Origin: a virus
Taxonomy: Duplodnaviria; Caudoviricetes
DNA: 64,000 nucleotides
Virus record (IMG/VR): IMGVR_UViG_2974529992_000001
Coordinates: 3,119 to 67,118 of that record
Direction: 5' to 3' (one strand)
The translations under genes and the position numbers were made by a program. The notes under the pieces were generated by a model. The model was not told the origin of the DNA, did no database searches, and worked only from the letters and a program-made list of their open reading frames with translations. This document shows, one piece after another, positions 1,611 through 17,365 of the stretch (positions are counted from its first letter, which is position 1; every line of letters starts with the position of its first letter).

Positions 1611-2198
1611 ATGGCTCGCAAACGAGGAGCGTGGGGTAACGCGCTCGGTGGATACAAGCGACAGCGACGGGTCAAGGGCCGCTTCGCTTCCGGCTCGGGC
1701 GGTATGAGCCCGACGAAGCAGAATCGTCAACTGTATCGCAAGCGGAAGCGAGCGATCAATCGGAACACCCGGAATAACGTCCGCAGCGAGAACTTCGCCG
1801 CGTACCGGCCTTCGGTTCGCAAGGGGTACAACGCTATCGCACAGGCTCACGGAGCCAACCCCCGAGGCGCACAGCTGACACGAGACATCAAGTACTCGAG
1901 CGCGCAGATGAAGAAGAGCTATCGGCAGCAGGGTCGTCAGCAGAAGCGAGTGCTGAAGGCCAGCTACAAGATCGCCCAGAACAACGTGAAGATCTCCAAC
2001 GCGCAGAAGTCACTCGCGGCGAGTCCTCACTTGGCCGGAACCGGAATGCACAACAGCATCAATCGCAAGATCGCCAAGCGCCAGCGGCAGAACGTCGCGA
2101 TCGCCCGTCGGGCCGGTATCGCCAATCCCCGGCCGATCCCTCGCACTGGCCACATCGGCTCCGGCGTCATGGCGATTCCGGGTCCGCGGAAGCGATAG
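1611..2198 (+). CDS. Highly basic protein with WGNALGG motif (195 aa)
   Basis: SD AGGAG upstream; very K/R-rich; N-terminal WGNALGGYKxQRxxxGRF. Confidence 0.85.
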   Translation: MARKRGAWGNALGGYKRQRRVKGRFASGSGGMSPTKQNRQLYRKRKRAINRNTRNNVRSENFAAYRPSVRKGYNAIAQAHGANPRGAQLTRDIKYSSAQMKKSYRQQGRQQKRVLKASYKIAQNNVKISNAQKSLAASPHLAGTGMHNSINRKIAKRQRQNVAIARRAGIANPRPIPRTGHIGSGVMAIPGPRKR

Positions 2199-2203
2199 TC
2201 GTC

Positions 2204-2350
2204 ATGGGCAAGCGATGGGGCAACGCCCTCGGAGGCTGGAAATACCAGAAGCGAACGAAGAAGGGTACGTTCGCCGGTCTGGGACTTCGCGGCAAGACTC
2301 GTAAGGGCGTGAAGAAGGTGAAGGGCTCCCTTCGACGAAAGAGGCGGTAA
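2204..2350 (+). CDS. Small basic protein with WGNALGG motif (48 aa, MGKRWGNALGGWKYQKRTKKGTF...)
   Basis: Translated by hand (below the ORF-track cutoff); TAATG overlap with the next gene; shared motif. Confidence 0.8.
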   Translation: MGKRWGNALGGWKYQKRTKKGTFAGLGLRGKTRKGVKKVKGSLRRKRR

Positions 2351-2622
2351 TGGCTCTGAAGGCACGGAAGTTCAAGATTCGCTTCCAGCTGCGCCCGAGG
2401 AGCTCCAAGAAGCCTCAGCGGATCTCGCTGGTGTCGCAGCGACGCATCGTCGTGAACGGCAAGACCGTGAAGGCGGGCCAGAAGGTCGACCTGACTGATA
2501 AGAAGCATCAGCTCAAGGCGATCGTCGCGAAGCCGAAAGCGACGAAGAATCCTCGTGGAGCGAAACAGGCGACGATCAAAGCAGTCCGGAACGTGAAGGC
2601 AGGAAAGATCAACGGAGGTTGA
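2350..2622 (+). CDS. Basic protein (90 aa)
   Basis: K/R-rich ORF in a tightly coupled operon. Confidence 0.75.
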   Translation: MALKARKFKIRFQLRPRSSKKPQRISLVSQRRIVVNGKTVKAGQKVDLTDKKHQLKAIVAKPKATKNPRGAKQATIKAVRNVKAGKINGG

Positions 2623-2624
2623 TC

Positions 2625-2798
2625 ATGGGACGTAAACGTAAAGGCGGAAGCTCGAGATTCCACAGTAAGAAGCAGTGGAGGTGGGCCTTCGCGAACAAAA
2701 AGAGCTGGGCTCGTCGACACGCCCACCGTACTCCCGGCGGAAAAGGCAGGCGATACCGCAGGCTTCCGACGAGGAGCCGTAAGGGAAAGAAGCGCTAG
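2625..2798 (+). CDS. Small basic protein (57 aa, MGRKRKGGSSRFHSKKQWRWAFANKKSWARRHAH...)
   Basis: Hand translation; SD GGAGG upstream; stop abuts the ATG at 2799. Confidence 0.75.
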   Translation: MGRKRKGGSSRFHSKKQWRWAFANKKSWARRHAHRTPGGKGRRYRRLPTRSRKGKKR

Positions 2799-3554
2799 AT
2801 GGCAGGCAAGGGTCTCGTTCGAGGAAAGGCTTGGGGTAACGCTCTGGGCGGATACAAGACCCAGCCCCGTGACGCCTCGGGTCGATTCGGCGGCAAGGCT
2901 AAGAAGCGAGGCAGTTTTACGGTTCTTCGTAACGGAGGGCCGACCCCCGGCTCCAAGCCGAGGCGAGTAACCAATCCCAGCGCGGTTCCTCGTGCCAGTG
3001 GCCAGCGTAGCGTATTCAGCAAGGCTGACAAGATCGCTCGCAGTCGAGGCGGGGGAGTGGTGCCTTATCACCGTCACGGATATGGTCATCACACCGCCGG
3101 AGTGAATGCTGGCATCAGCATCACACCGAATCGACGGATCTCGGGCGGCGTGTACCTGCGTACCGATAACCTGCGTGCCCAGAAGCGTGTTTCGAAGCTC
3201 CTGAGCGCCGATGAGCGCGCTCGGATGGCCATTGGTGGGGGCGTGGCCACCGTGTACGGAGGTCAGAAGCGTAACGCCAATTGGATCAAGCGGAAACGAG
3301 ACGCTTTGGTCCGAAAGGGGCTCGGCAAAGAGCTGAACATCCCAAATTCCAACGCCTTCGGTCGAGCTGGCACTGACCGGAACGGCCTCCCGACCCTCGT
3401 CGTGCAGTACAATAGCCCGAGAGGAAAGAAGGAGCGCAGTCGTAAGGCTCGTGACACGGCAATCGTGAAGTACAACGAGGCAGCGACTCGCAGTCGGGGC
3501 AACAAGGTGAAGAAGCCGCGTCCGCAAAGGAGGAAGAAGAATGGCAAAGGGTAG
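2799..3554 (+). CDS. Highly basic protein with WGNALGG and RDxxGRF motifs (251 aa)
   Basis: N-terminal AWGNALGGYKTQPRDASGRF; K/R-rich. Confidence 0.85.
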   Translation: MAGKGLVRGKAWGNALGGYKTQPRDASGRFGGKAKKRGSFTVLRNGGPTPGSKPRRVTNPSAVPRASGQRSVFSKADKIARSRGGGVVPYHRHGYGHHTAGVNAGISITPNRRISGGVYLRTDNLRAQKRVSKLLSADERARMAIGGGVATVYGGQKRNANWIKRKRDALVRKGLGKELNIPNSNAFGRAGTDRNGLPTLVVQYNSPRGKKERSRKARDTAIVKYNEAATRSRGNKVKKPRPQRRKKNGKG

Positions 3555-3621
3555 GCCGTCTCGAGGAACCGGCAGAGACAGACGACTGAAGCGCAATCGA
3601 GGGAAGAAGAAGCGTCGCTGA
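3541..3621 (+). CDS. Tiny basic peptide (26 aa, MAKGRPSRGTGRDRRLKRNRGKKKRR)
   Basis: Hand translation; GGAAG/AAGAAG purine run upstream; fills the gap exactly before the JAB gene. Confidence 0.6.
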   Translation: MAKGRPSRGTGRDRRLKRNRGKKKRR

Positions 3622-3622
3622 C

Positions 3623-3997
3623 ATGACCGCGACCGTTTCCGTACAACGCTCGTTTCCCGACCCCCTGAACAAAAGTGCCTGTGAGGAGCTTCTTTCGAAG
3701 TGGGGTCTGGGAGACGAGCGTTGCGGTGTGATATTGCACGACGGTACTGTGATAGAGCTCCGCAATGGATGGGAAGACCCCTCTCATGCTTTCGGGATTC
3801 TCCGTGAGGAGCTCGAGGAAATCTTCAGCGAACACGGAACCCATTGTCTTATGGGAATCTGGCACACTCACCCGAACAACAGAACCAGCCCAAGCAAGCA
3901 TGATGCTGAGGGGTGGCCGACTGGTTCATTGCGATACTTTATCGTAACCCAATCCGAAGTGGCGGAGTGGGCGAACCCTTTCGACAGGCTCTACTAG
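3623..3997 (+). CDS. JAB/MPN (JAMM) metalloprotease
   Basis: ERCGVI (catalytic Glu) plus exact HxH-x7-S-x2-D motif HTHPNNRTSPSKHD. Confidence 0.9.
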   Translation: MTATVSVQRSFPDPLNKSACEELLSKWGLGDERCGVILHDGTVIELRNGWEDPSHAFGILREELEEIFSEHGTHCLMGIWHTHPNNRTSPSKHDAEGWPTGSLRYFIVTQSEVAEWANPFDRLY

Positions 3998-4027
3998 TTG
4001 CCAGCTTGCTTCCGCATGAGGTAAGCT
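3998..4027 (+). promoter_or_regulatory. Putative sigma-A-like promoter for scaffold/capsid operon
   Basis: TTGCCA-18 nt-TAAGCT in the intergenic gap; SD GGAGG before the ATG at 4064. Confidence 0.45.
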
Positions 4028-4063
4028 GAAGCTCGTTACTTACCCTGAGAGCCGGAGGTTCCA

Positions 4064-4810
4064 ATGAAGTCGACCGTCCTTCGTAAGGACATCGCAAAGT
4101 TCTTCGCCTTCGGCGGAGACGGCGGTGAAGAGCCGCCCAACATCAACGTTCCTGGAGCGAAGGACGACAACAAGAGTCGCGGTAGCAGCCGTCGACGCAG
4201 TCGTCGCCGGGATGACGACGATGACGACGACGATGACGACATCGACCTGAACGATTCGGGTCCGGGCTCCAAGGACAACAAGATCTATAAGTTGTCGCAG
4301 GAGAACAAGAATCGTCGACGGGCGAATCGCGAACTGCGAGAGACGATCGCCGAGCGCGACGAGCGCATCGAGGAGCTCGAAGAGGAACTGCGCAAGGTTC
4401 CGCAGCTCCAGAGCCTGTACGAGAAGCAGAAGCAGGACAACGAGAAGATGAAGGACACCGTCCGCGAGATGGCCCTTCGTCAGGCTCTTGGGACAGCCAA
4501 GGGCAAGGACGAGAAGCCGCTGGCATGGTACGATGAGGGCATGGTTCTTGACCTCATCGACCGCAAGAAGGTCGCGGTGGACCTCAAGGATTTCTCGGTG
4601 AGCGGTCTGGACGATCAGCTCCAGAAGATCGCCGAAGAGAAGCCGTTCCTCGTGAAGGACTCCAGCGGAGAGCCGACCGGCGGGACCAGCAGTCGCACCA
4701 CGGCAACGGGTGCGGCACCCCAGAGCAGCGCGACGGGAACCGGGCAGCAGAATCAGACGGCTACGAAAGACAAGTACCAGTCTCGATTCGCTGCGTTGAA
4801 CAACATCTGA
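4064..4810 (+). CDS. Capsid scaffolding protein
   Basis: Acidic/low-complexity N-half, coiled-coil centre, flexible C-tail; two genes upstream of the major capsid gene. Confidence 0.85.
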   Translation: MKSTVLRKDIAKFFAFGGDGGEEPPNINVPGAKDDNKSRGSSRRRSRRRDDDDDDDDDDIDLNDSGPGSKDNKIYKLSQENKNRRRANRELRETIAERDERIEELEEELRKVPQLQSLYEKQKQDNEKMKDTVREMALRQALGTAKGKDEKPLAWYDEGMVLDLIDRKKVAVDLKDFSVSGLDDQLQKIAEEKPFLVKDSSGEPTGGTSSRTTATGAAPQSSATGTGQQNQTATKDKYQSRFAALNNI

Positions 4811-4821
4811 AAGGATACGTC

Positions 4822-5199
4822 GTGGCGAACTACGACAAGTACAACTCCAAGGTTGGAGGCTTCCGCGCGCCGCTCGCAGCCGATTGGTCGACGGACGATC
4901 TCAAGGAAGTGATCGGTGTCGGTCTGAACGCATCGGGCCAGATCGTCAAGGGCGGTGGAAGCACCGGTCTCGTCGGGATCCTGGTCCTGACCAAGGCGCT
5001 CAAGGCAGGCGATATCGTGGACCCGATGGTTCGCGGTCACGTCACCGACTTCGGCGGCAACCCCGGAACCATCTACTACGCGGACCCGACGACCGGCGTC
5101 GTGAACTCGACTTCGGCCGCAGGCAAGTACCGCGTCGGCCACACCGTCGGCAAGGACTTCCTCGTCGTCGACTTCAACAAGACCCCGGTCGCGGCGTAA
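4822..5199 (+). CDS. Capsid decoration/cement-like protein
   Basis: 125 aa between scaffold and MCP; G/V-rich beta-type sequence; strong codon bias. Confidence 0.7.
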   Translation: MANYDKYNSKVGGFRAPLAADWSTDDLKEVIGVGLNASGQIVKGGGSTGLVGILVLTKALKAGDIVDPMVRGHVTDFGGNPGTIYYADPTTGVVNSTSAAGKYRVGHTVGKDFLVVDFNKTPVAA

Positions 5200-5212
5200 G
5201 GAAGGAAGAGGA

Positions 5213-6376
5213 ATGATGATCGAACTGAAGACCAAGTTCTTCGCCTTCGGTGGCGACGGCGGTTACCAGACCGCTGGCGACATCGTCACTCAGACCATCG
5301 ACGGTGTCGACCTGAACGCCCTTTGGGCGGAGTACCAGGAGACCATCGCTCTTTGGAACGAGCGCCGACTCGGGCTCGCAGGACTGCTGACCTTCCCGGT
5401 CACCAACCTGATCGAGAACGTCCCGCAGGTCGGCGACGCGATCTTCCAGGAAGCGTCGGAGTTCGGCGAGCCGGAAGCCGGGAAGATCCCCGTCAGCTAC
5501 ATCCAGCTCGGCTACGACTTCAAGTGGTACGACGTCGCGAGCCGTTGGACCTGGATGTTCCTGGCCGACGCGGATGTCCGACAGATCGACGCCCTCCACA
5601 ACGCCTACCTGAACGGCGACGCGCGACTCGTGTTCCGGAAGATCATGGAAGCGATCTTCGACAACCGGAATCGTTCCGCGGACATCAACAGTCAGGCGTA
5701 CAACGTCTACCCGCTCTACAACGGGGACGGCATGGTGCCGCCGGACTACGGCGTGAACGAGTTCGAGGGCACGCACTCGCACTACCTCGTCTCGGGTGGT
5801 ACCGAGATCGATCCGGGCGACCTGGAGAACGCCACGGAGCACATCGAGGAGCACGGCTACTCGAAGGAAAACGGCACGACCCTCATCCACCTCGTCAACA
5901 AGGCGCAGGCGAAGGTCATTCGCACGTTCCGACAGGGGCAGACGACCAACGGAGTCGTGGCGAACTACGACTTCATCCCGTCCACCAACGAGTCGCCGAT
6001 CATTCTCCCGGCCGAGGGCATCCTCGGTTCGCGTCCGCCGAGCACCTGGCAGGGCCTCCGTGTGCTCGGTTCGTACAACGACGCGCTCATCATCGAGCAC
6101 TTCGCCATCCCGGCGCTGTACATGCTGACGTTCGCCTCCGGTGGACTCGGCCAGATGGGCAACCTCGTCGGTCTCCGCGAGCATGCGAACCCGGCTTACC
6201 GGGGTCTGCGACTCATCGCCGGCAATCAGCAGGGCTACCCGCTGACGGAGTCGTTCTACTCGCGAGGATTCGGCACCGGCATCCGACAGCGTGGCGGAGG
6301 CGTCGTGACGCAGATCAAGGCGTCGGGCTCGTACGACATCCCGACGCAGTACCGTAAGGGATCGGGGCTGGGCTGA
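5213..6376 (+). CDS. Major capsid protein
   Basis: 387 aa, position after scaffold/decoration, strongest codon bias, SD AGGAAG. Confidence 0.88.
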   Translation: MMIELKTKFFAFGGDGGYQTAGDIVTQTIDGVDLNALWAEYQETIALWNERRLGLAGLLTFPVTNLIENVPQVGDAIFQEASEFGEPEAGKIPVSYIQLGYDFKWYDVASRWTWMFLADADVRQIDALHNAYLNGDARLVFRKIMEAIFDNRNRSADINSQAYNVYPLYNGDGMVPPDYGVNEFEGTHSHYLVSGGTEIDPGDLENATEHIEEHGYSKENGTTLIHLVNKAQAKVIRTFRQGQTTNGVVANYDFIPSTNESPIILPAEGILGSRPPSTWQGLRVLGSYNDALIIEHFAIPALYMLTFASGGLGQMGNLVGLREHANPAYRGLRLIAGNQQGYPLTESFYSRGFGTGIRQRGGGVVTQIKASGSYDIPTQYRKGSGLG

Positions 6377-10427: not shown

Positions 10428-10662
10428 AGGAATATGGCTGTTCTGCCGCATGGTCGAAGGTGAGGTAGAACAAGCTGGGTCTAGGGTGAAGAACGCCTCG
10501 CAGGCGGCAGGGCTTCGACAAAGCACTTTGATGAAGTACCTGTATCCCGACGATCCAACCAAGCGATTCAGAACGGCTCAGACACCAACTGAGAAGGCCG
10601 GGCCTTCCGCGAGTGGAGAAGAATTCTTCACTAAGAATTTCGGGCAGCGGAGAGGTTTGTGA
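10306..10662 (+). CDS. Tail assembly chaperone extension (T-like), probably reached by +1 frameshift
   Basis: Frame open 10246-10662, overlaps the G-like ORF and ends 1 nt before the tape measure start; TTT CGC at 10305-10310. Confidence 0.7.
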   Translation, partial: FALAKDKPKVWQLWQMSKEYQRTPAELIGVSHPTRAFFLNRGIWLFCRMVEGEVEQAGSRVKNASQAAGLRQSTLMKYLYPDDPTKRFRTAQTPTEKAGPSASGEEFFTKNFGQRRGL

Positions 10663-10663
10663 G

Positions 10664-13600
10664 ATGTCAGATTATGATCTCGGTAGGGCTCATGGCGAAA
10701 TCGAGATCACCACTGACGTCGACTCTGAAGGCATTGCTCGGAAGCTAGACCGCATTCGAAGTTCTGTCGGACGACTCGCTCGTCAGTTCAGGGACGCCGA
10801 AGACAAGTTGCAGCGTTTCGAGCGAGTCGCCGACAGGATTCAGCGAAGCACTCAGCGTCTTGCGAGCACTGGCTCCAAGATGATCCGCACCTTCGCCCAG
10901 ATGGGCTCTCAGGTCGTCTCGACCACTCGCCAGATCACAGGTCTGGACAATGCCCTCGTAGATCTGCGGAATACCGCACAGTCTGTCGCCAAGGGCATCA
11001 TGTCCGCGACAATGGCGATGTCGGAGTTCTCCAGCGTCTCAGGGATCGCAGGGGCAGCTCTGCACAAATTCGCCGGCATCGGGAAAGAGCTGGCGAATTT
11101 CCCTAAGTGGGCTCAGGATGTCGTAAAGCTCGCCGGTACGATCGGGACCATCGGCGCAGTCAGCGGCAAGGCTGGCGCGGTAGCTCGTAGCCGTCTCGTC
11201 CCCGCTGTTCGTAGCGCTGTCGGAGCAATGGGCGCTATGTCCATCGCTGGCGTACTGCTTCGTGATCGAGTTCAGGGCGTCGCCTTCGGTCTGGGAATGG
11301 CCTTCCCGCAGATCGACACTTTCGCGCAGAAGCTGAAGAGCGCTGGCCGCGATATGCGCGGCTTCGGCGACAACGCGAACAAGATTCTCCAGGGCACCTC
11401 CAAGATGATTCTTGGAATGGCTGCCGTCCGGAGCGGACTGAGGGGGCTGGCAGGAGCCCTCTCCAAGGTTGCTCCGCTCATGAAGTACTTCGCCGCTGGC
11501 ACTCTGGCGCTTGGGGCGCTTGGTCCTATCGCCACCGTTATCCTTGGGATAGTTGACGCTGTCAAGCAGCTTTCGGGCGCTGCTCTGATATTGCCTGGCG
11601 CGCTAGCAGTGCTGGTCACAGCGGGCGGGGTTGCTGCCGTTGCCATCAGCGGCCTAGGACAGGCGTTCAAGGCGGGGTTTGGCGAGGCCGAGGACTTTGA
11701 GAAGGAGATCAAGGACCTATCGCCTCGACTCGTAGAGTTCGCCCGCAGTATCCAGCCTCTCCGCAAGGAATTCCTCGACCTCCGCAACTCGGTCACCGAG
11801 GCTGCGTTCGATGGCCTGATCGACAGCTTCAAGGACATCGCCGAGTCTTGGCTGCCTCTCCTCGAGAGCGGCATGGTCCACGTAGCTGGCGGAATTGACA
11901 ACATCACGAACTCAGTGTTGCGGTTCGCTACTGCCAGAGTTACGATGGAGTCGTTCGCGTTTGTGTTCGCGAATACCCGTACTGTTCTTGACAATGTTGC
12001 ATCCGGTGTTGAACCAGTTCTTCGAGGCTTTCGTACGATCGGTGTGATCGGCACCGTTGCGGTTGTTCAGCTCACCAGGAATCTGGGGGCTCTGGCCTTC
12101 CTGTTTGAGAATTGGACGACCAGGGTCGCCGCAGACGGAAGTCTCGAAGGCTGGATTAACGACGGCGTCCAAGGTTTCCGAGATCTCTGGCACATCATGC
12201 GAGATGTGTCCATGGCCACTTATGAGTTGTTCCAGGCATTCGGTGGCAATGGCGATGGTGCGCTAGAGAAGACCGCAGACGGTGCCAAGGCTCTCCGCCA
12301 GGCGATGGAAGGGCTAGGGAATAACGACACCTTCCAGAAGGTCGTTACTCATCTCGAGTACGCTTCGGGCAAGATCGTAGAGACCTTCCTGGAGATCGGC
12401 AGGGTCGCCGGTTCTGCCTTCGTGAACATCATCCCAGAGATGGAGGCTCTGGCAGCAGGATTCGCCTCCAAGTTTATACCGATCATGAAGATCGCGATCC
12501 AGACCCTCGAGGTCTTTATCAACGTGATCGGTGCGTTGGGTCTGGACACCGTGATAGGCCAGGCTCTCGGTATGGCCGCTGCTCTGCGGCTCATGCTGCC
12601 GGTGGTCATGGTTCTCGTGAACGCCTTCAAGCTGCTCGCTGCCTCCATGATCTTCACCGGGGCTCAGAACGCGCTTCTCGGAATCGCGACGGCTTTGGAT
12701 ACGTTCTCGCGCAAGGCGAAGGTCGCAGAGACCTCGGTCGGCAAGTGGACCAGTCGAGCAAGCAACGGGTTCCTGACTCTAGCCGGATTGATGACGGGTC
12801 CGGTTCTGGCAGCGATCGCTACCGTGGTCGCAGCATTCATGTCGATCAGGGCCAAGAACACATTCGTTGATGAATGGAACTCTCAGCTCCGCAAGGACGC
12901 CATCGAGGCGAAGGAAGCTGCCGAGGGCATCCGAGATGCTTTCTTCGAGAACAACGGTAAGTTCGGCAAGAATGTCTTCGACGCGGTCTCTGCTTCCATC
13001 GATACGATGGAAGCCAAGATCGAGGGCCAGGCCAACAAGGGTCCGGGCTTCATGGAGTGGATGGGCGCTGCCTTCGAGGACGTGCCCACGGCGTTCGGCG
13101 ACGACTACAACAAGAACACCAAGCAACTCCAGGACATGGATCATCTCCAGGATCGCGCACTGCGCGTTCGGGAGGCCATCGACGAAATCGGTTGGAGCCA
13201 GGAGGAACTCACAACCGCGATCACCGGCAGTACTCACGAATACAACGAGCTCGTAACCGCTCTTCAGGGGACCGAGTACGGCGGCGGAGAGGCGATCGAA
13301 GAGTTCGCCGCCCAGCGAGCTGAGTTCGAGGCTATCGCTCAGTCCATGCGCGAGCTCGGCCCCGACACGATTCAGCTCGCGAACGCAATGGGCGTCCTGG
13401 CGGATGAGTCGTCTACAGCCGCTGACAAGCTCAGTGCGATCACCTCCGCCCTGGAGGCAATGGGTCTTCTCCAGGTCAGCGAAGCTGAGGCGTTCTCTCG
13501 TCTGCGCGACTCCATCAAGGAGGTCACGACAGAGGCGAGCCAGCTTGCCGAGATCGATACCGGTCAGCTGTTCAACAAGGACGGCTCGATTGATCTTGCC

Positions 13601-16600
13601 AGTCAGGCATACGGAACATTCTGGGAGACAGTTCGTCCCATCTCGGATAACCTGCGATCCATTGCAGCAGCAGGCGGAGATGTTGGAGCGAACCTTTCGC
13701 GAGCGTGGGACGAAGCGGCACCGGCACTCCAGGCGGTTCAGCAGGAGCTTGGCCTCACCGACGCACAGATGCAGACCCTCTATCGCAGCACCGGTCTCGT
13801 TCCTAAGGAACTCGAGATGCTGGTCAGCGTCGAGGGAATGGACGCCTCATACAGCGAGCTTCTGCGGCTCAGTTCCGAGGCCAGCAAGATCAACGGAACT
13901 CCGGTCGAGGTTCAGACCACGATCCAGGACAGCGACACGATTTCGATGCTCCAGGGCATTGGGGCTGAAGTCGAGGTTCTCAACGCCAAGACTGGGCAAG
14001 TCAAGGTCCACTTCAAGGACGAGGGTGTCTGGGACGACTACCTGAAGCTCATCGCCCGCATCGAGTACGATAGCGGTGCGAAGGTCGGTATCGAGCTCAA
14101 CCCCGAAGACGCCAAGGCGGTTGAGGATCACATCAACTGGCTGAGGAGCCAGGGACGAGTCGCGAACACGGAGACTCCTGGAGCGGTAGAGCAGGGCGTT
14201 CCTGGACAGGAGCCTCCTCCCGGAAGGCAGCAGAAGCCAGGACAGCAACCAGCTCCAGAGCCGGTTCAGAAGCCCGGAGCTCCTCCTTCTACCACCGATC
14301 AACTCTTTAAGAATCTCGAGCCCTCAAGTCGCAAGCCGGGACAGCCTGCCCCTCCGCCTGCACCAGGACAGCCCGCTCCGCCTCCGGAACAGGTGTCGCC
14401 TGAACAGCTTCCGGAGAAGAAGCAGATCGATGTCATTATCGGCGGAGGCGATCATCTCGGAATCCTAGCGAGAATTGCAGCGGCTGTTCAGGCTCTCCCG
14501 GCACGCAAGGACGTGCAGGTCATCATCGCAGGCGGTGATCATCTGGGGATCCTTGCACGAATCACCGCAGCGGTCAACGCCCTTCCCGCTCGTAAGGATG
14601 TTCAGGTCATCATCGCCGGTGGTGATCATCTCGGTATCCTTCAGCGCATTGTGGCCGCAGTTCAGGCTCTGCCTGCGAGCAGGGATATCCATGTCAATCT
14701 GACCGGTGTCCCAGAGATCCACGCTTCACTGGGTGGTGTTCGCCAGGCGATCGACGGAGTTGTTCAGGCAGCTGAAGGCTTCGCGGCCAAGATGATCGAC
14801 GTTGCCAATCGTAGCGTAGCAGCGATCAATCGCGTTAAGGACGTGATCAACGGCGTCAAAACGACGATGGACACCGTGGCTCGCAGTGCATTCGCCAGCG
14901 GTCAGTCTCTCGGCCAGGGCTTCGCAGACGGAATCAAGTCGAAGCAGGCCGCAGTTCGAGAAGCTTCCATGGCTCTGGCTCGGTCGGCCAGCGAACCTCT
15001 TCCGCGCTCTCCCGCAAAGATCGGTCCGTTCTCGGGACGCGGCTGGACACCCTTCCGCGGTCGCAGCCTGGCGGAAGGGTTCGCCAAGGGTATCCATGAC
15101 GGCTCGGACGAAACCCAGAAGGCCAGCCTCGACATGGTCGCGAACATCGCCAAGGCGATGGACGGGATCCGAATGGCCTTCGGTCTTACCCCCACGTTCT
15201 TCGAGGAGAATCGGACACCGGGTCCGGGCGGCAAGCGATACTTCCGTGATCCGGAAGTTACCGATGAAGAGCTTCGAGAGGCTCGAGAGAAGGCAGCCGA
15301 GAAGCAGGCTGAGAAGGACGAGATCGCGGCCGAGAAGGCTGCGACAAAGATCCCAGACGCCGAGAAGAGAATCGCCGAAGCTCAAGAGTCCGTCGTGGAG
15401 GCTCAGCAGCGAGCAACTGAGGCTCGAACCAAGGCGAATCAGAAGCCAGGAGACCAGAAGGCTCAGGACGCAGCGTTCCGCGCCGAGGAATCTCTGGACA
15501 AGGCTCGGGAGCGTCAGACCAAGGCGGAGTCCACCCTTCGCGAGCTTCAGGCTTCTGCGGCGAACGCAGGAACCGGAACCGGTGCAGGCGGAGCAGCTGT
15601 CGAAGGCAGCAGCGACGCTCTAGTCAAGAGCCTGGATAACGCTCAGTATCAGATGGGCGGATTCAGCCAGGCAGTTCTTGACTGCACCGGCTTCGTGTCG
15701 GCCTTGGCCAACGCGCGCACCGGGCGTCCGATGTTCAGCGAGCGTGGCAACACCACGAACCTTCGAGAGTTCCTCCTCGCTCGAGGATTCAAGGAAGGAA
15801 AGGGCGGTCAGGGAGACCTCTCCGTTGGCTGGTGGGACAACGGCGGTGGTGCCAATGGTCACGCAGCCATTACCACCGAAAGTGGGCTTAACGCCGAATC
15901 GACCACCGGAGGTGTTCGATTCGGCGAGGGTGCAGCGGGTGCTCGCAGCAATAACTCGCAGTTCACTGACTTCATGTACCTCCCAGGTCGTGGTGGTGGC
16001 GTTGCCGCAGTGCCGATCGAAAACAAGCCTGCGATAGATCCCGCAAGCGACCAGCTCACTCAGGACCAGGTTGCCCAGCTCATCATCGCCGAAGGTGAGG
16101 CAGCCGGTGCAACCGAGGACGAGATCAAGGCCGCTCTTTCGACCGCTTTGGTTGAGAACAACTTGTCCAACAAGCGTGGCGGACCCGACAGCTCTACCGG
16201 AGCGTTCCAGCAGCAGAACTTCGGTGAGTGGACGAAGGACGGTCGAAACCGCGACAACGTGAGCGATGCTTCTCGTACCTTTTACGAGCAGCTCCTTCAG
16301 ACGCGCGGCAAGGGTACCCCCGGTCAACGTGCGCAGATGGTTCAGCGCTCGGCATATCCGGACAAGTACGATCAGCGCATGGCAGAAGCCTCCATGTTCT
16401 ATACTCGGAACAAGGGTGCCGCAGAGAGCTTCGGTTCTGCGAGCGGCATGGCTGCAACCGCTGGCAACACCGAGGACACAGTCGCCCTTCTCCGCCAGAA
16501 CAACAAGACGCTCGATCAGGCGATCACAACGGCTCAGGACCCGAACGCCAGCGAAGGCGATGTGATCCGGGCGCTCCAGGACATCGACGACGCAATGGTC

Positions 16601-17365
16601 GGCATGTCGGCCACCGAGCGTCAGTCCATGGACAGTATCCGCGAAGCGGTGATGACCGATCGTGGCATCAAGGAATACGATCCCTTCGAGGACGCTCCAG
16701 AGACCCCGAAGGAATGGTTCGACACCATCTTTACGGGGATCATCGCGAACGTCGTCGGTTTGATCCAGACGATCGAGGGCGGCATCAACGCCGCCGTGGA
16801 CATGGCGCACCTGGTCTCTCGAGGATTCGCCAATACGAACGACGTTCATACATTCGTCGACGGAATCCAGGGTCTGGTGGGAACGGCGGTCGAGATCGCC
16901 AGCACCATCGGTAGCGTGATCCAGAGTGTCGCCAGCATCGCAGCTGTCGCAGGAGCAGCCATCCCGGGGATCGGCCAGGTGGGGGCCGTAATCTCGGCAG
17001 TCTCCGGCGGCATCGCAGACGTGAACGCCGTGGTAGACTTGATGCAGGATGTGACCAAGATCGGTGGACGACTGTTCGGTGGTGCTCTCTCCAGCCTTCT
17101 CGGCCTTGGCGGAACAGGCCAGCTCGAAGGGCAGATTCGAACTTTGATGGACCTGAACGACAAGACCATCAAGACCTGGAGTGATCGCAACGCAGCAGAC
17201 AAATCGGTCATGGGCCTACCGGGGTCTCAGGTTCGAGATCCCAATCAGGCTAGCAACTTCCGTGACCTGAACATCTACCAGGGTCCCGGACAGGACCCAG
17301 CGGAGATGATGAACAACGCGATGTTCGCGGTGGCAGCGCACAGTCAGGGAGTGTACGGCGGATGA
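10664..17365 (+). CDS. Tape measure protein (2233 aa) with C-terminal cell-wall hydrolase domains
   Basis: Longest ORF, A/G/L-rich helical; ATG at 10664 after GGAGAGG; DCTGF...GHAAI and VENN...STGAFQQ...VQRSAYP motifs. Confidence 0.95.
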   Translation: MSDYDLGRAHGEIEITTDVDSEGIARKLDRIRSSVGRLARQFRDAEDKLQRFERVADRIQRSTQRLASTGSKMIRTFAQMGSQVVSTTRQITGLDNALVDLRNTAQSVAKGIMSATMAMSEFSSVSGIAGAALHKFAGIGKELANFPKWAQDVVKLAGTIGTIGAVSGKAGAVARSRLVPAVRSAVGAMGAMSIAGVLLRDRVQGVAFGLGMAFPQIDTFAQKLKSAGRDMRGFGDNANKILQGTSKMILGMAAVRSGLRGLAGALSKVAPLMKYFAAGTLALGALGPIATVILGIVDAVKQLSGAALILPGALAVLVTAGGVAAVAISGLGQAFKAGFGEAEDFEKEIKDLSPRLVEFARSIQPLRKEFLDLRNSVTEAAFDGLIDSFKDIAESWLPLLESGMVHVAGGIDNITNSVLRFATARVTMESFAFVFANTRTVLDNVASGVEPVLRGFRTIGVIGTVAVVQLTRNLGALAFLFENWTTRVAADGSLEGWINDGVQGFRDLWHIMRDVSMATYELFQAFGGNGDGALEKTADGAKALRQAMEGLGNNDTFQKVVTHLEYASGKIVETFLEIGRVAGSAFVNIIPEMEALAAGFASKFIPIMKIAIQTLEVFINVIGALGLDTVIGQALGMAAALRLMLPVVMVLVNAFKLLAASMIFTGAQNALLGIATALDTFSRKAKVAETSVGKWTSRASNGFLTLAGLMTGPVLAAIATVVAAFMSIRAKNTFVDEWNSQLRKDAIEAKEAAEGIRDAFFENNGKFGKNVFDAVSASIDTMEAKIEGQANKGPGFMEWMGAAFEDVPTAFGDDYNKNTKQLQDMDHLQDRALRVREAIDEIGWSQEELTTAITGSTHEYNELVTALQGTEYGGGEAIEEFAAQRAEFEAIAQSMRELGPDTIQLANAMGVLADESSTAADKLSAITSALEAMGLLQVSEAEAFSRLRDSIKEVTTEASQLAEIDTGQLFNKDGSIDLASQAYGTFWETVRPISDNLRSIAAAGGDVGANLSRAWDEAAPALQAVQQELGLTDAQMQTLYRSTGLVPKELEMLVSVEGMDASYSELLRLSSEASKINGTPVEVQTTIQDSDTISMLQGIGAEVEVLNAKTGQVKVHFKDEGVWDDYLKLIARIEYDSGAKVGIELNPEDAKAVEDHINWLRSQGRVANTETPGAVEQGVPGQEPPPGRQQKPGQQPAPEPVQKPGAPPSTTDQLFKNLEPSSRKPGQPAPPPAPGQPAPPPEQVSPEQLPEKKQIDVIIGGGDHLGILARIAAAVQALPARKDVQVIIAGGDHLGILARITAAVNALPARKDVQVIIAGGDHLGILQRIVAAVQALPASRDIHVNLTGVPEIHASLGGVRQAIDGVVQAAEGFAAKMIDVANRSVAAINRVKDVINGVKTTMDTVARSAFASGQSLGQGFADGIKSKQAAVREASMALARSASEPLPRSPAKIGPFSGRGWTPFRGRSLAEGFAKGIHDGSDETQKASLDMVANIAKAMDGIRMAFGLTPTFFEENRTPGPGGKRYFRDPEVTDEELREAREKAAEKQAEKDEIAAEKAATKIPDAEKRIAEAQESVVEAQQRATEARTKANQKPGDQKAQDAAFRAEESLDKARERQTKAESTLRELQASAANAGTGTGAGGAAVEGSSDALVKSLDNAQYQMGGFSQAVLDCTGFVSALANARTGRPMFSERGNTTNLREFLLARGFKEGKGGQGDLSVGWWDNGGGANGHAAITTESGLNAESTTGGVRFGEGAAGARSNNSQFTDFMYLPGRGGGVAAVPIENKPAIDPASDQLTQDQVAQLIIAEGEAAGATEDEIKAALSTALVENNLSNKRGGPDSSTGAFQQQNFGEWTKDGRNRDNVSDASRTFYEQLLQTRGKGTPGQRAQMVQRSAYPDKYDQRMAEASMFYTRNKGAAESFGSASGMAATAGNTEDTVALLRQNNKTLDQAITTAQDPNASEGDVIRALQDIDDAMVGMSATERQSMDSIREAVMTDRGIKEYDPFEDAPETPKEWFDTIFTGIIANVVGLIQTIEGGINAAVDMAHLVSRGFANTNDVHTFVDGIQGLVGTAVEIASTIGSVIQSVASIAAVAGAAIPGIGQVGAVISAVSGGIADVNAVVDLMQDVTKIGGRLFGGALSSLLGLGGTGQLEGQIRTLMDLNDKTIKTWSDRNAADKSVMGLPGSQVRDPNQASNFRDLNIYQGPGQDPAEMMNNAMFAVAAHSQGVYGG
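14432..14692 (+). repeat. Three tandem 87-nt (29-aa) repeats within the tape measure gene
   Basis: VIIxGGDHLGILxRIxAAVxALPAxxD at 14432, 14519, 14606. Confidence 0.9.

Follow-up and report, generated by a model that had tools for sequence, protein, structure and literature searches.

Which enzyme would process the head proteins of a tailed phage whose scaffolding protein and major capsid protein (MCP), otherwise unrelated, begin with the same short peptide? The question is raised by a stretch of 64,000 nucleotides (hereafter the window), bases 3119-67118 of the complete 67,118-bp virus record IMGVR_UViG_2974529992_000001; only the terminase and most of the portal gene lie outside it, and all of its genes run on the + strand. 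It shares 92% DNA identity with Terapin, BiteSize and Madi, Gordonia phages of the genus Terapinvirus, and the locus considered here encodes head assembly in a Terapin-like Gordonia siphophage. Proteolytic head maturation is a textbook step in the assembly of tailed phages and herpesviruses, and to our knowledge the enzymes described for it are either serine proteases from a small number of families or, in the staphylococcal phage 80alpha, a cysteine protease of the host. A preliminary description of the window proposed that a phage-encoded zinc peptidase of the JAB/JAMM type removes short leaders ending in Gly-Gly from MCP, scaffold and small basic internal proteins. From the sequence and its comparison with relatives, a JAMM-type head-maturation leader peptidase appears to be the best explanation of this JAB gene and, on balance, a probable one.

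A peptide shared by scaffold and capsid protein

According to the proposal, the MCP and the scaffold would be made with N-terminal leaders of 14 and 18 residues respectively, with a hydrophobic stretch and then Gly-Gly at the end of each. The decapeptide KFFAFGGDGG extends from K12 to G21 in the scaffold (encoded at 4097-4126) and from K8 to G17 in the MCP (5234-5263), and the two 30-nt copies, set in unrelated flanks, differ only at two synonymous third positions (GGC/GGT and GGA/GGC); the peptide, its coordinates and the two silent differences had all been noted in the preliminary description and were reproduced on re-checking the sequence. In a set of 75 non-overlapping + strand open reading frames (ORFs), only four proteins have A[FL]GG among their first 30 residues, and all four belong to the head module (a 48-residue protein with the related ending WGNALGG falls below the ORF size cut-off and is hence uncounted), and the whole proteome holds just two further matches, both internal. 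Ten consecutive identical residues within the first 21 of two proteins that are otherwise unrelated cannot be put down to chance. In relatives the sharing recurs, each time with a different sequence. A common N-terminal motif on scaffold and MCP is likewise found in 80alpha, where the leaders of both proteins are cut by the host protease Prp (PMC5744158). In that phage 13-14 residues are removed, the gene order is the same as here (portal, MuF-type protein, PF06810-type scaffold, MCP), and in related phages the motif is also carried by non-homologous virion proteins.

The recurrence of the motif was followed in a comparison set made up of eight phages with annotation and of 80 IMG/VR loci that encode MCP relatives, in which MCP, scaffold, MuF and JAB were located by profiles. 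Scaffold and MCP share a motif within each phage, and the motif differs between lineages (PIFGG, PFGG, F[LV]FG[AC]DP, [AV]IKGS, DI[VI]GA, LSGHD). In JAB-positive loci 41 of the 43 distinct MCP leaders have the form hydrophobic-G-[GASCN], placed 7-16 residues before an invariant Asp, and a matching motif was found on 32 scaffolds. MCP leaders resemble the scaffold of their own phage more than other scaffolds, none of 5000 permutations reaching the observed score, a measure that is inflated by relatedness. The leaders are real, conserved and co-varying between the two proteins. A tblastn search with the scaffold itself gave matches in Terapin-like phages only.

Similar peptides were seen elsewhere as well. 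The tape measure protein (10613-17365) has at residue 542 the segment ELFQAFGGNG, which resembles the leader motif and is kept in BiteSize; it was set aside as a leader-type site, being a conserved internal segment and compatible with chance. The 65-residue protein encoded immediately after the portal starts M-DGGYSTSGDVV, which is almost the start predicted for the mature MCP (DGGYQTAGDIV, from 5255), and its homologue in phage LilyPad starts MEGGYHTSGD. Judging from these sequences, the small protein may imitate the tip of the MCP N-arm.

Predicted position of the cut

The MCP of the window is 52-59% identical to those of the mycobacteriophages Patience (PDB 8GIU) and Adjutor (8SAJ), for which published data bear on the mature ends. 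Pope et al. reported N-terminal peptides of Patience gp21 that start at residue 35, after a Gly, and which, being neither tryptic nor initiation products, were left unexplained (PMC4324244). Patience gp21 is the scaffold homologue and residue 35, counted from the sequence, directly follows PIFGG, that is PIFGG|T. The 2.4 Å model of the Patience capsid is trimmed to Thr20 (PMC11965321), a residue that stands directly after PIFGG in the MCP as well. The Adjutor capsid model starts at Asn28, just after GLSGHD (PMC11965321), and the Adjutor-type scaffold carries LSGHD. In these homologues two independent data sets, mass spectrometry of a scaffold and the model of an MCP, agree on a boundary that follows Gly-Gly, as the preliminary description had predicted, as against one at FF|A, and published results on homologous proteins give good support to a cut at that point. 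By alignment, the mature proteins of the window are predicted to begin DGGYQT (MCP) and DGGEEP (scaffold). A cut after the second Gly-Gly (DGG|Y), which had been entertained in the preliminary description, is less likely, as the GGY that follows the first is conserved and is modelled in the mature Adjutor N-arm. The 2014 proposal that the Patience MCP is cut at residues 82/83 is incompatible with the 2025 capsid model starting at Thr20. Removal of Gly-Gly leaders, if it occurs as proposed, would explain both oddities of Patience: the scaffold N-terminus after a glycine and the start of the capsid model at Thr20.

The candidate enzyme

Between the tagged genes, which bracket it as had been described, lies an ORF with an intact JAMM motif E...HxHx7Sx2D, made up of E32, H81-x-H83, S91 and D94. 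It matches the Pfam family PF14464 (Prok-JAB) with 29.9 bits against a curated cut-off of 25 (E 5.6e-7), and across 23 relatives of about 30% identity there is no variation at E32, H81, H83 or D94, while at least 90% of the sequences retain S91. An AlphaFold2 model (predicted local distance difference test, pLDDT, 85.5) has the MPN fold, its best Foldseek matches being 2kks, PfJAMM1 (5ld9/5lda), Cap3 (9ild) and Rpn11, with probability 1.0 and template modelling scores of about 0.5-0.6. The closest structures are minimal prokaryotic JAMMs whose cut follows a Gly-Gly tail (PfJAMM1 with SAMP2, Cap3 and DSY2949), with which the sequence profiles agree; among NCBIfam families Cap3 is matched weakly. 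The desampylases PfJAMM1 and HvJAMM1, Mec+ (CysO) and Cap3 of the cyclic oligonucleotide-based antiphage signalling system (CBASS) have the same catalytic motif and single-domain fold of about 120-150 residues, and they recognise an extended tail whose last residues are Gly-Gly or small, hydrolysing the bond that comes next. What they release is a folded beta-grasp protein or a CD-NTase, whereas here it would be a leader of 11-18 residues, the products being virion proteins. Leaders of that length are too short for a beta-grasp domain and so are not ubiquitin-like substrates, a difference which concerns the class of substrate and leaves the family membership of JAB unaffected.

The gene stands between portal and MCP, in the head module, which is the position expected of a prohead protease, and its stop codon often overlaps the MuF start in relatives. 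MuF, the next gene after JAB in most relatives, is missing from the window phage by profile location. The JAB protein is 66% identical to BiteSize gp8, compared with 97% for the scaffold and 99% for the MCP, and about as distant from the JAB of LilyPad (64% identity), which suggests either that the JAB gene was exchanged locally, in mosaic fashion, or that it alone evolves fast.

In the mechanism proposed, the stand-alone JAMM protein would recognise an extended end resembling a ubiquitin tail, of the form ...[F/L]-G-G, and hydrolyse the bond after the second Gly, giving the mature starts DGGYQT and DGGEEP. WGNALGG would be a second version of the tag, carried by three very basic, probably internal proteins and probably handled alike, and would act both as address and as cleavage signal, as in T4. 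If this is true, a JAMM zinc peptidase cutting after Gly-Gly would add an unrelated enzyme class to head maturation, and the recognition of an extended Gly-Gly tail, familiar from ubiquitin, would be applied to plain peptide leaders.

Short leaders that end in Gly-Gly and have a dedicated peptidase are also a feature of class II bacteriocins, whose double-glycine leaders are cut by C39 peptidase domains, papain-like cysteine enzymes coupled to export. That system is unrelated to virion assembly and a C39-like gene was not seen here. The mode of cleavage proposed also differs from that in 80alpha, where the site is F|A and the enzyme a cysteine protease of the host with a second function in the maturation of ribosomal protein L27; in the window phage the cut, going by the relatives, would fall after Gly-Gly, and it would be made by a phage-encoded zinc peptidase.

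Other proteases and database labels

In the preliminary description a separate prohead protease beyond the window was named as something that could account for the cleavage, and a search of the complete genome gave no match to the S78, ClpP, S49 or Prp families (S77 was not searched for). JAB belongs to a clan different from these known prohead protease families. The curated annotation of the near-identical BiteSize lists the JAB 'metalloprotease' as the only protease. It had also been supposed that Prp is not to be expected in Actinobacteria, and this held within the range of the controls: the family was matched in Bacillus, Lactococcus and Thermotoga among others, and was absent from the phage and from Corynebacterium glutamicum, the sole control from the Mycobacteriales, the Gordonia host genome not being among them. 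A cut at F|A by a Prp cysteine protease, which goes with an extended L27, does not fit the findings here: the boundary in relatives falls after Gly-Gly and the phage gave no Prp match.

Some database labels point elsewhere. The family of the 251-residue basic protein encoded directly before JAB is labelled 'head maturation protease' (phrog_12708, RefSeq), and the JAB family 'tail protein' (PHROG, RefSeq). As a protease the 251-residue protein was rejected, since the conserved residues of its family are limited to P, Y, R, T, G and N, with no His, Ser, Cys, Asp or Glu among them; on this comparison of sequences its label does not appear credible. The structure prediction for this protein (mean pLDDT 48.8) was too low for a fold search. 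MuF was likewise rejected: its conserved R-T-E, His and Cys are unlike a protease signature and were read as an ADP-ribosyltransferase-like site with a zinc site, and the protein is absent from the window. The JAB homologues in the same gene position have been named in GenBank 'Protease' (Patience gp19), 'metalloprotease' (Send513, Weiss13, BiteSize) and 'capsid maturation protease' (Benzema). A role of JAB as head protease is thus hinted at by GenBank labels and is not described in the literature searched, in which no substrate, cut site or experiment was found stated for any of these homologues. Both labels, 'head maturation protease' for the upstream basic protein and 'tail protein' for JAB, look wrong, and many database entries would be corrected if JAB is the leader peptidase.

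Distribution of JAB and leaders among relatives

A tree of the MCP (43 distinct rows) is divided into two clades with 99/97 support. The JAB gene is present in the head module of 28/28 rows of one clade and in no row of the other, and the hosts of isolated phages are Mycobacterium and Gordonia for the JAB clade, Microbacterium and Arthrobacter for its sister. The order basic proteins, JAB, (MuF), scaffold, decoration protein, MCP is common to the window and the 28 distinct relatives. Co-occurrence of JAB with Gly-Gly leaders, which the preliminary description had put forward as a check, represents a single event, and leaders with no head-module JAB are found in the sister clade.

The sister clade is not uniform. 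In the loci L056, L057, L058 (6431-6928) and L080 (7381-7884) a 165-residue HExxH protein, weakly SprT-like, occupies the exact JAB slot between portal and MuF, and a similar small zincin is encoded before the terminase in L035 (212-583). The HExxH protein looks like a non-orthologous replacement of the head-module metalloprotease. In three separate lineages (L044, L083, L086) the MCP is leaderless, starting M-x-KGYN, and the scaffold starts at its acidic region; neither a JAB nor an HExxH gene lies nearby in these loci, nor any other protease gene. Replacement in the same slot and joint loss of leaders and protease both fit a leader peptidase.

Some further candidates in this clade were tried and rejected. 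FreddieHg gp3 (15 bits) and G007 were weak matches as JAMM proteases and did not hold up, and the JAMM protein of Wollypog resembles RadC and is encoded a long way from the head genes. A search of the relatives' genomes with the L035 zincin gave no match, and one with the long N-terminal extension of the MuF protein of L082 gave nothing informative.

Taken together, these distributions allow a broader suggestion, namely a further, undescribed class of head-maturation protease in phages of Mycobacteriales in which a stand-alone JAMM reads a di-glycine, like that of a ubiquitin tail, on short leaders, one code serving both the maturation of capsid and scaffold and the loading and trimming of DNA-binding internal proteins, and which in sister phages has been swapped for a zincin or lost along with the leaders. 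In this full extent the suggestion is a tentative one, for which we would put the prospects at somewhat less than even.

Alternative explanations

Several points weigh against assigning the cleavage to JAB. The presence of JAB traces back to a single event on the tree of the MCP, and finding the gene together with leaders in many phages is consequently not replicated evidence. In the Indlulamithi-like locus L031, in which JAB is present, Asn or Phe stands at the P1 position where a small residue is expected (LPFGN|EDT in the MCP leader, PPYGF|EDG in the scaffold leader). It had been stated beforehand that relatives keeping the motifs and lacking JAB would speak against the proposal, and this was found to be partly so: shared Gly-ending leaders are kept with no head-module JAB in FreddieHg, Wollypog, L053, L070, L077 and L082/84; one subclade of the sister clade has the other small zinc protease in the slot. 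Seven leader-keeping rows, including one complete and two 84%-complete genomes, have no convincing protease, so that a host enzyme can apparently suffice in such phages, or their leaders are never cut. Assembly of 80alpha requires the scaffold leader and can do without its cleavage (PMC5744158). The starting residues of the cryo-electron microscopy models represent missing density, not proven cleavage. Of the proposal in the preliminary description, then, the leaders are real, the cut after Gly-Gly is supported by way of Patience, JAB is intact and conserved and no other protease was found among the families searched; that MCP and scaffold of the window phage are cut, that its WGNALGG proteins are packaged and cut as well, and that JAB is the enzyme, we infer.

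The main rival is that the Gly-Gly leaders are removed by a host peptidase, as by Prp in 80alpha, or by an unrecognised phage enzyme, JAB having some other role associated with the head. The precedent of 80alpha, in which a host enzyme cuts both proteins, speaks for it, as do the sister-clade phages that keep leaders with no head-module JAB, several having no convincing protease anywhere. A source for such an activity is conceivable, since actinobacteria carry Prok-JAB proteins and PF14464 was matched in the control Corynebacterium glutamicum. Prp itself, however, is missing from the phage and unmatched in that actinobacterial control genome, and a host enzyme leaves out of account the intact catalytic residues of JAB in 28/28 distinct clade members, beside MuF and scaffold, and the second kind of zinc protease in the JAB slot of a JAB-less subclade, which suggests that the protease function belongs to the slot. 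We regard this explanation as rather unlikely, though one to be reckoned with.

An alternative of a different kind is that the shared motifs are assembly or targeting signals, recognised by a common chaperone, portal or scaffold core, which are not removed in this phage, WGNALGG being a binding motif joined to the element [YW]K.Q.R...GRF that follows it. The need for the 80alpha scaffold leader in assembly, whether or not it is cleaved, speaks for this; the cut-site data come from homologues of the Patience and Adjutor type and not from Terapin-like virions, and basic proteins of the Patience type share the motif AALKKAQ.ASA..RR, which has no Gly-Gly. Against this, the scaffold peptides and MCP density of Patience both start after Gly-Gly, MCP and scaffold of the leaderless relatives begin near the ends predicted for the mature proteins, and orthologues of the 251-residue protein start a few residues from the Gly-Gly boundary; we consider signals that stay in place improbable. 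It is more improbable still that JAB has nothing to do with the leaders, being a tail-assembly peptidase like lambda gpK or a counter-defence isopeptidase that strips ubiquitin-like conjugates of the host. The 'tail protein' labels, the weak NCBIfam matches to Cap3 and the faster evolution of JAB in comparison with its neighbours are consistent with such a role, and the phage JAB sequences that come closest, by tblastn, from beyond the actinophage family are the JAB domains of gpK-like tail proteins. These are, though, the source from which the 'tail protein' labels were transferred, and gpK is a fusion of JAB with NlpC/P60 in the tail module; the protein considered here is a stand-alone domain of 124 residues, with no NlpC/P60 part, and its gene lies always between portal and scaffold and never in a tail module. 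Cleavage of the leaders by the head-module JAB remains the reading that we prefer.

Basic proteins carrying a second tag

Three basic proteins encoded between portal and JAB carry WGNALGG, starting at 1632 (195 residues), 2216 (48 residues) and 2832 (251 residues), in agreement with the preliminary description. The third positions of the WGNALGG codons are free to vary among the three copies, and the motif is followed by a conserved element [YWF][KR].Q.R...G[RQ]F. Homologues of the 195-residue protein with the same leader are present in BiteSize, LilyPad and LittleFella, the LilyPad homologue of the 48-residue protein has WGNALSGG, and WGNAL(S)GG is found within residues 5-18 of three proteins in the window and four in LilyPad. 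Tag and downstream element are retained in LilyPad and LittleFella even where the motif of MCP and scaffold differs.

The 251-residue family stands directly upstream of JAB in many relatives (for example Patience gp18 and Predator gp14). Its orthologues in Predator, L009 and L010 start MSFNPRQPRD, 3-4 residues before a shared Q-P-R-D, and in the window protein the part after Gly-Gly (YKTQPRD) begins 3 residues before it; a start so near to the boundary fits a leader that is a removable add-on. The true homologues in Patience are gp10 for the 59-residue protein and gp18 for the 251-residue protein, whilst gp10-gp18 as a group are the positional counterparts of the basic proteins. Patience gp10-gp18 are virion proteins by mass spectrometry, gp15 being among the three most abundant (PMC4324244). 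The WGNALGG proteins are probably associated with DNA and internal to the head, and would probably be packaged there and cut.

The arrangement is similar to that in T4, in which the MCP, the scaffold and the small basic internal proteins IPI-III have in common one cleavage consensus of the protease gp21, and in which a short N-terminal tag of IPI-III is both address and cut site, the role proposed for the tag here. Dissimilar small basic head proteins bearing the consensus of the protease, the mark of the T4 type of shared tag, are by sequence present in the window. The T4 enzyme gp21 belongs to the serine proteases of the herpesvirus-assemblin type and its sites follow L/I-x-E, whereas the candidate here is a JAMM metalloprotease and the proposed signal G-G.

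In Patience (L002), Candle (L004) and Predator (L005) the basic proteins between portal and JAB share another N-terminal motif, T-P-A-R-x-A-A-L-K-K-A-Q-x-A-S-A-x-K-R-R, instead of WGNALGG. From its placement in the sequences this AALKKAQ-type motif may be another targeting tag.

Layout of the head module

The features of the module are collected in Table 1.

Table 1. Features of the head module, in positions of the window
Feature	Positions	Strand	Remarks
Basic protein, 65 residues	139-336	+	first in head module, right after portal
GDSL/SGNH hydrolase-like gene, 420 residues	337-1599	+	PF13472; weak tail-protein PHROG matches
Five proteins of isoelectric point (pI) ~12 (195, 48, 90, 59, 251 residues)	1611-3554	+	head module
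Basic protein, 195 residues, pI 12.0	1611-2198	+	predicted leader residues 1-14 (1611-1652), ends WGNALGG, then YKRQRR..GRF
Basic protein, 48 residues, pI 12.0, 40% K+R	2204-2350	+	predicted leader residues 1-11 (2204-2236), ends WGNALGG, then WKYQKR
Basic protein, 90 residues, pI 12.0	2350-2622	+	no GG leader; likely internal or virion protein
Basic protein, 59 residues, phrog_1375	2619-2798	+	KKQWRWAF motif; homologue of Patience gp10
Basic protein, 251 residues, pI 11.9	2799-3554	+	predicted leader residues 1-18 (2799-2852), ends WGNALGG
Stand-alone JAB/JAMM (MPN+) putative zinc peptidase, 124 residues	3623-3997	+	E32 at 3716-3718; HxHx7Sx2D at 3863-3904
Scaffolding protein, PF06810	4064-4810	+	predicted leader residues 1-18 (4064-4117); predicted cut FFAFGG|DGGEEP
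Minor capsid/decoration-type protein, 125 residues, phrog_5042	4822-5199	+	no leader
MCP, HK97 fold, Patience/Adjutor type	5213-6376	+	predicted leader residues 1-14 (5213-5254); predicted mature start DGGYQT at 5255

The GDSL/SGNH-like gene is an insertion among the portal-proximal head genes and is not present in Terapin or BiteSize.

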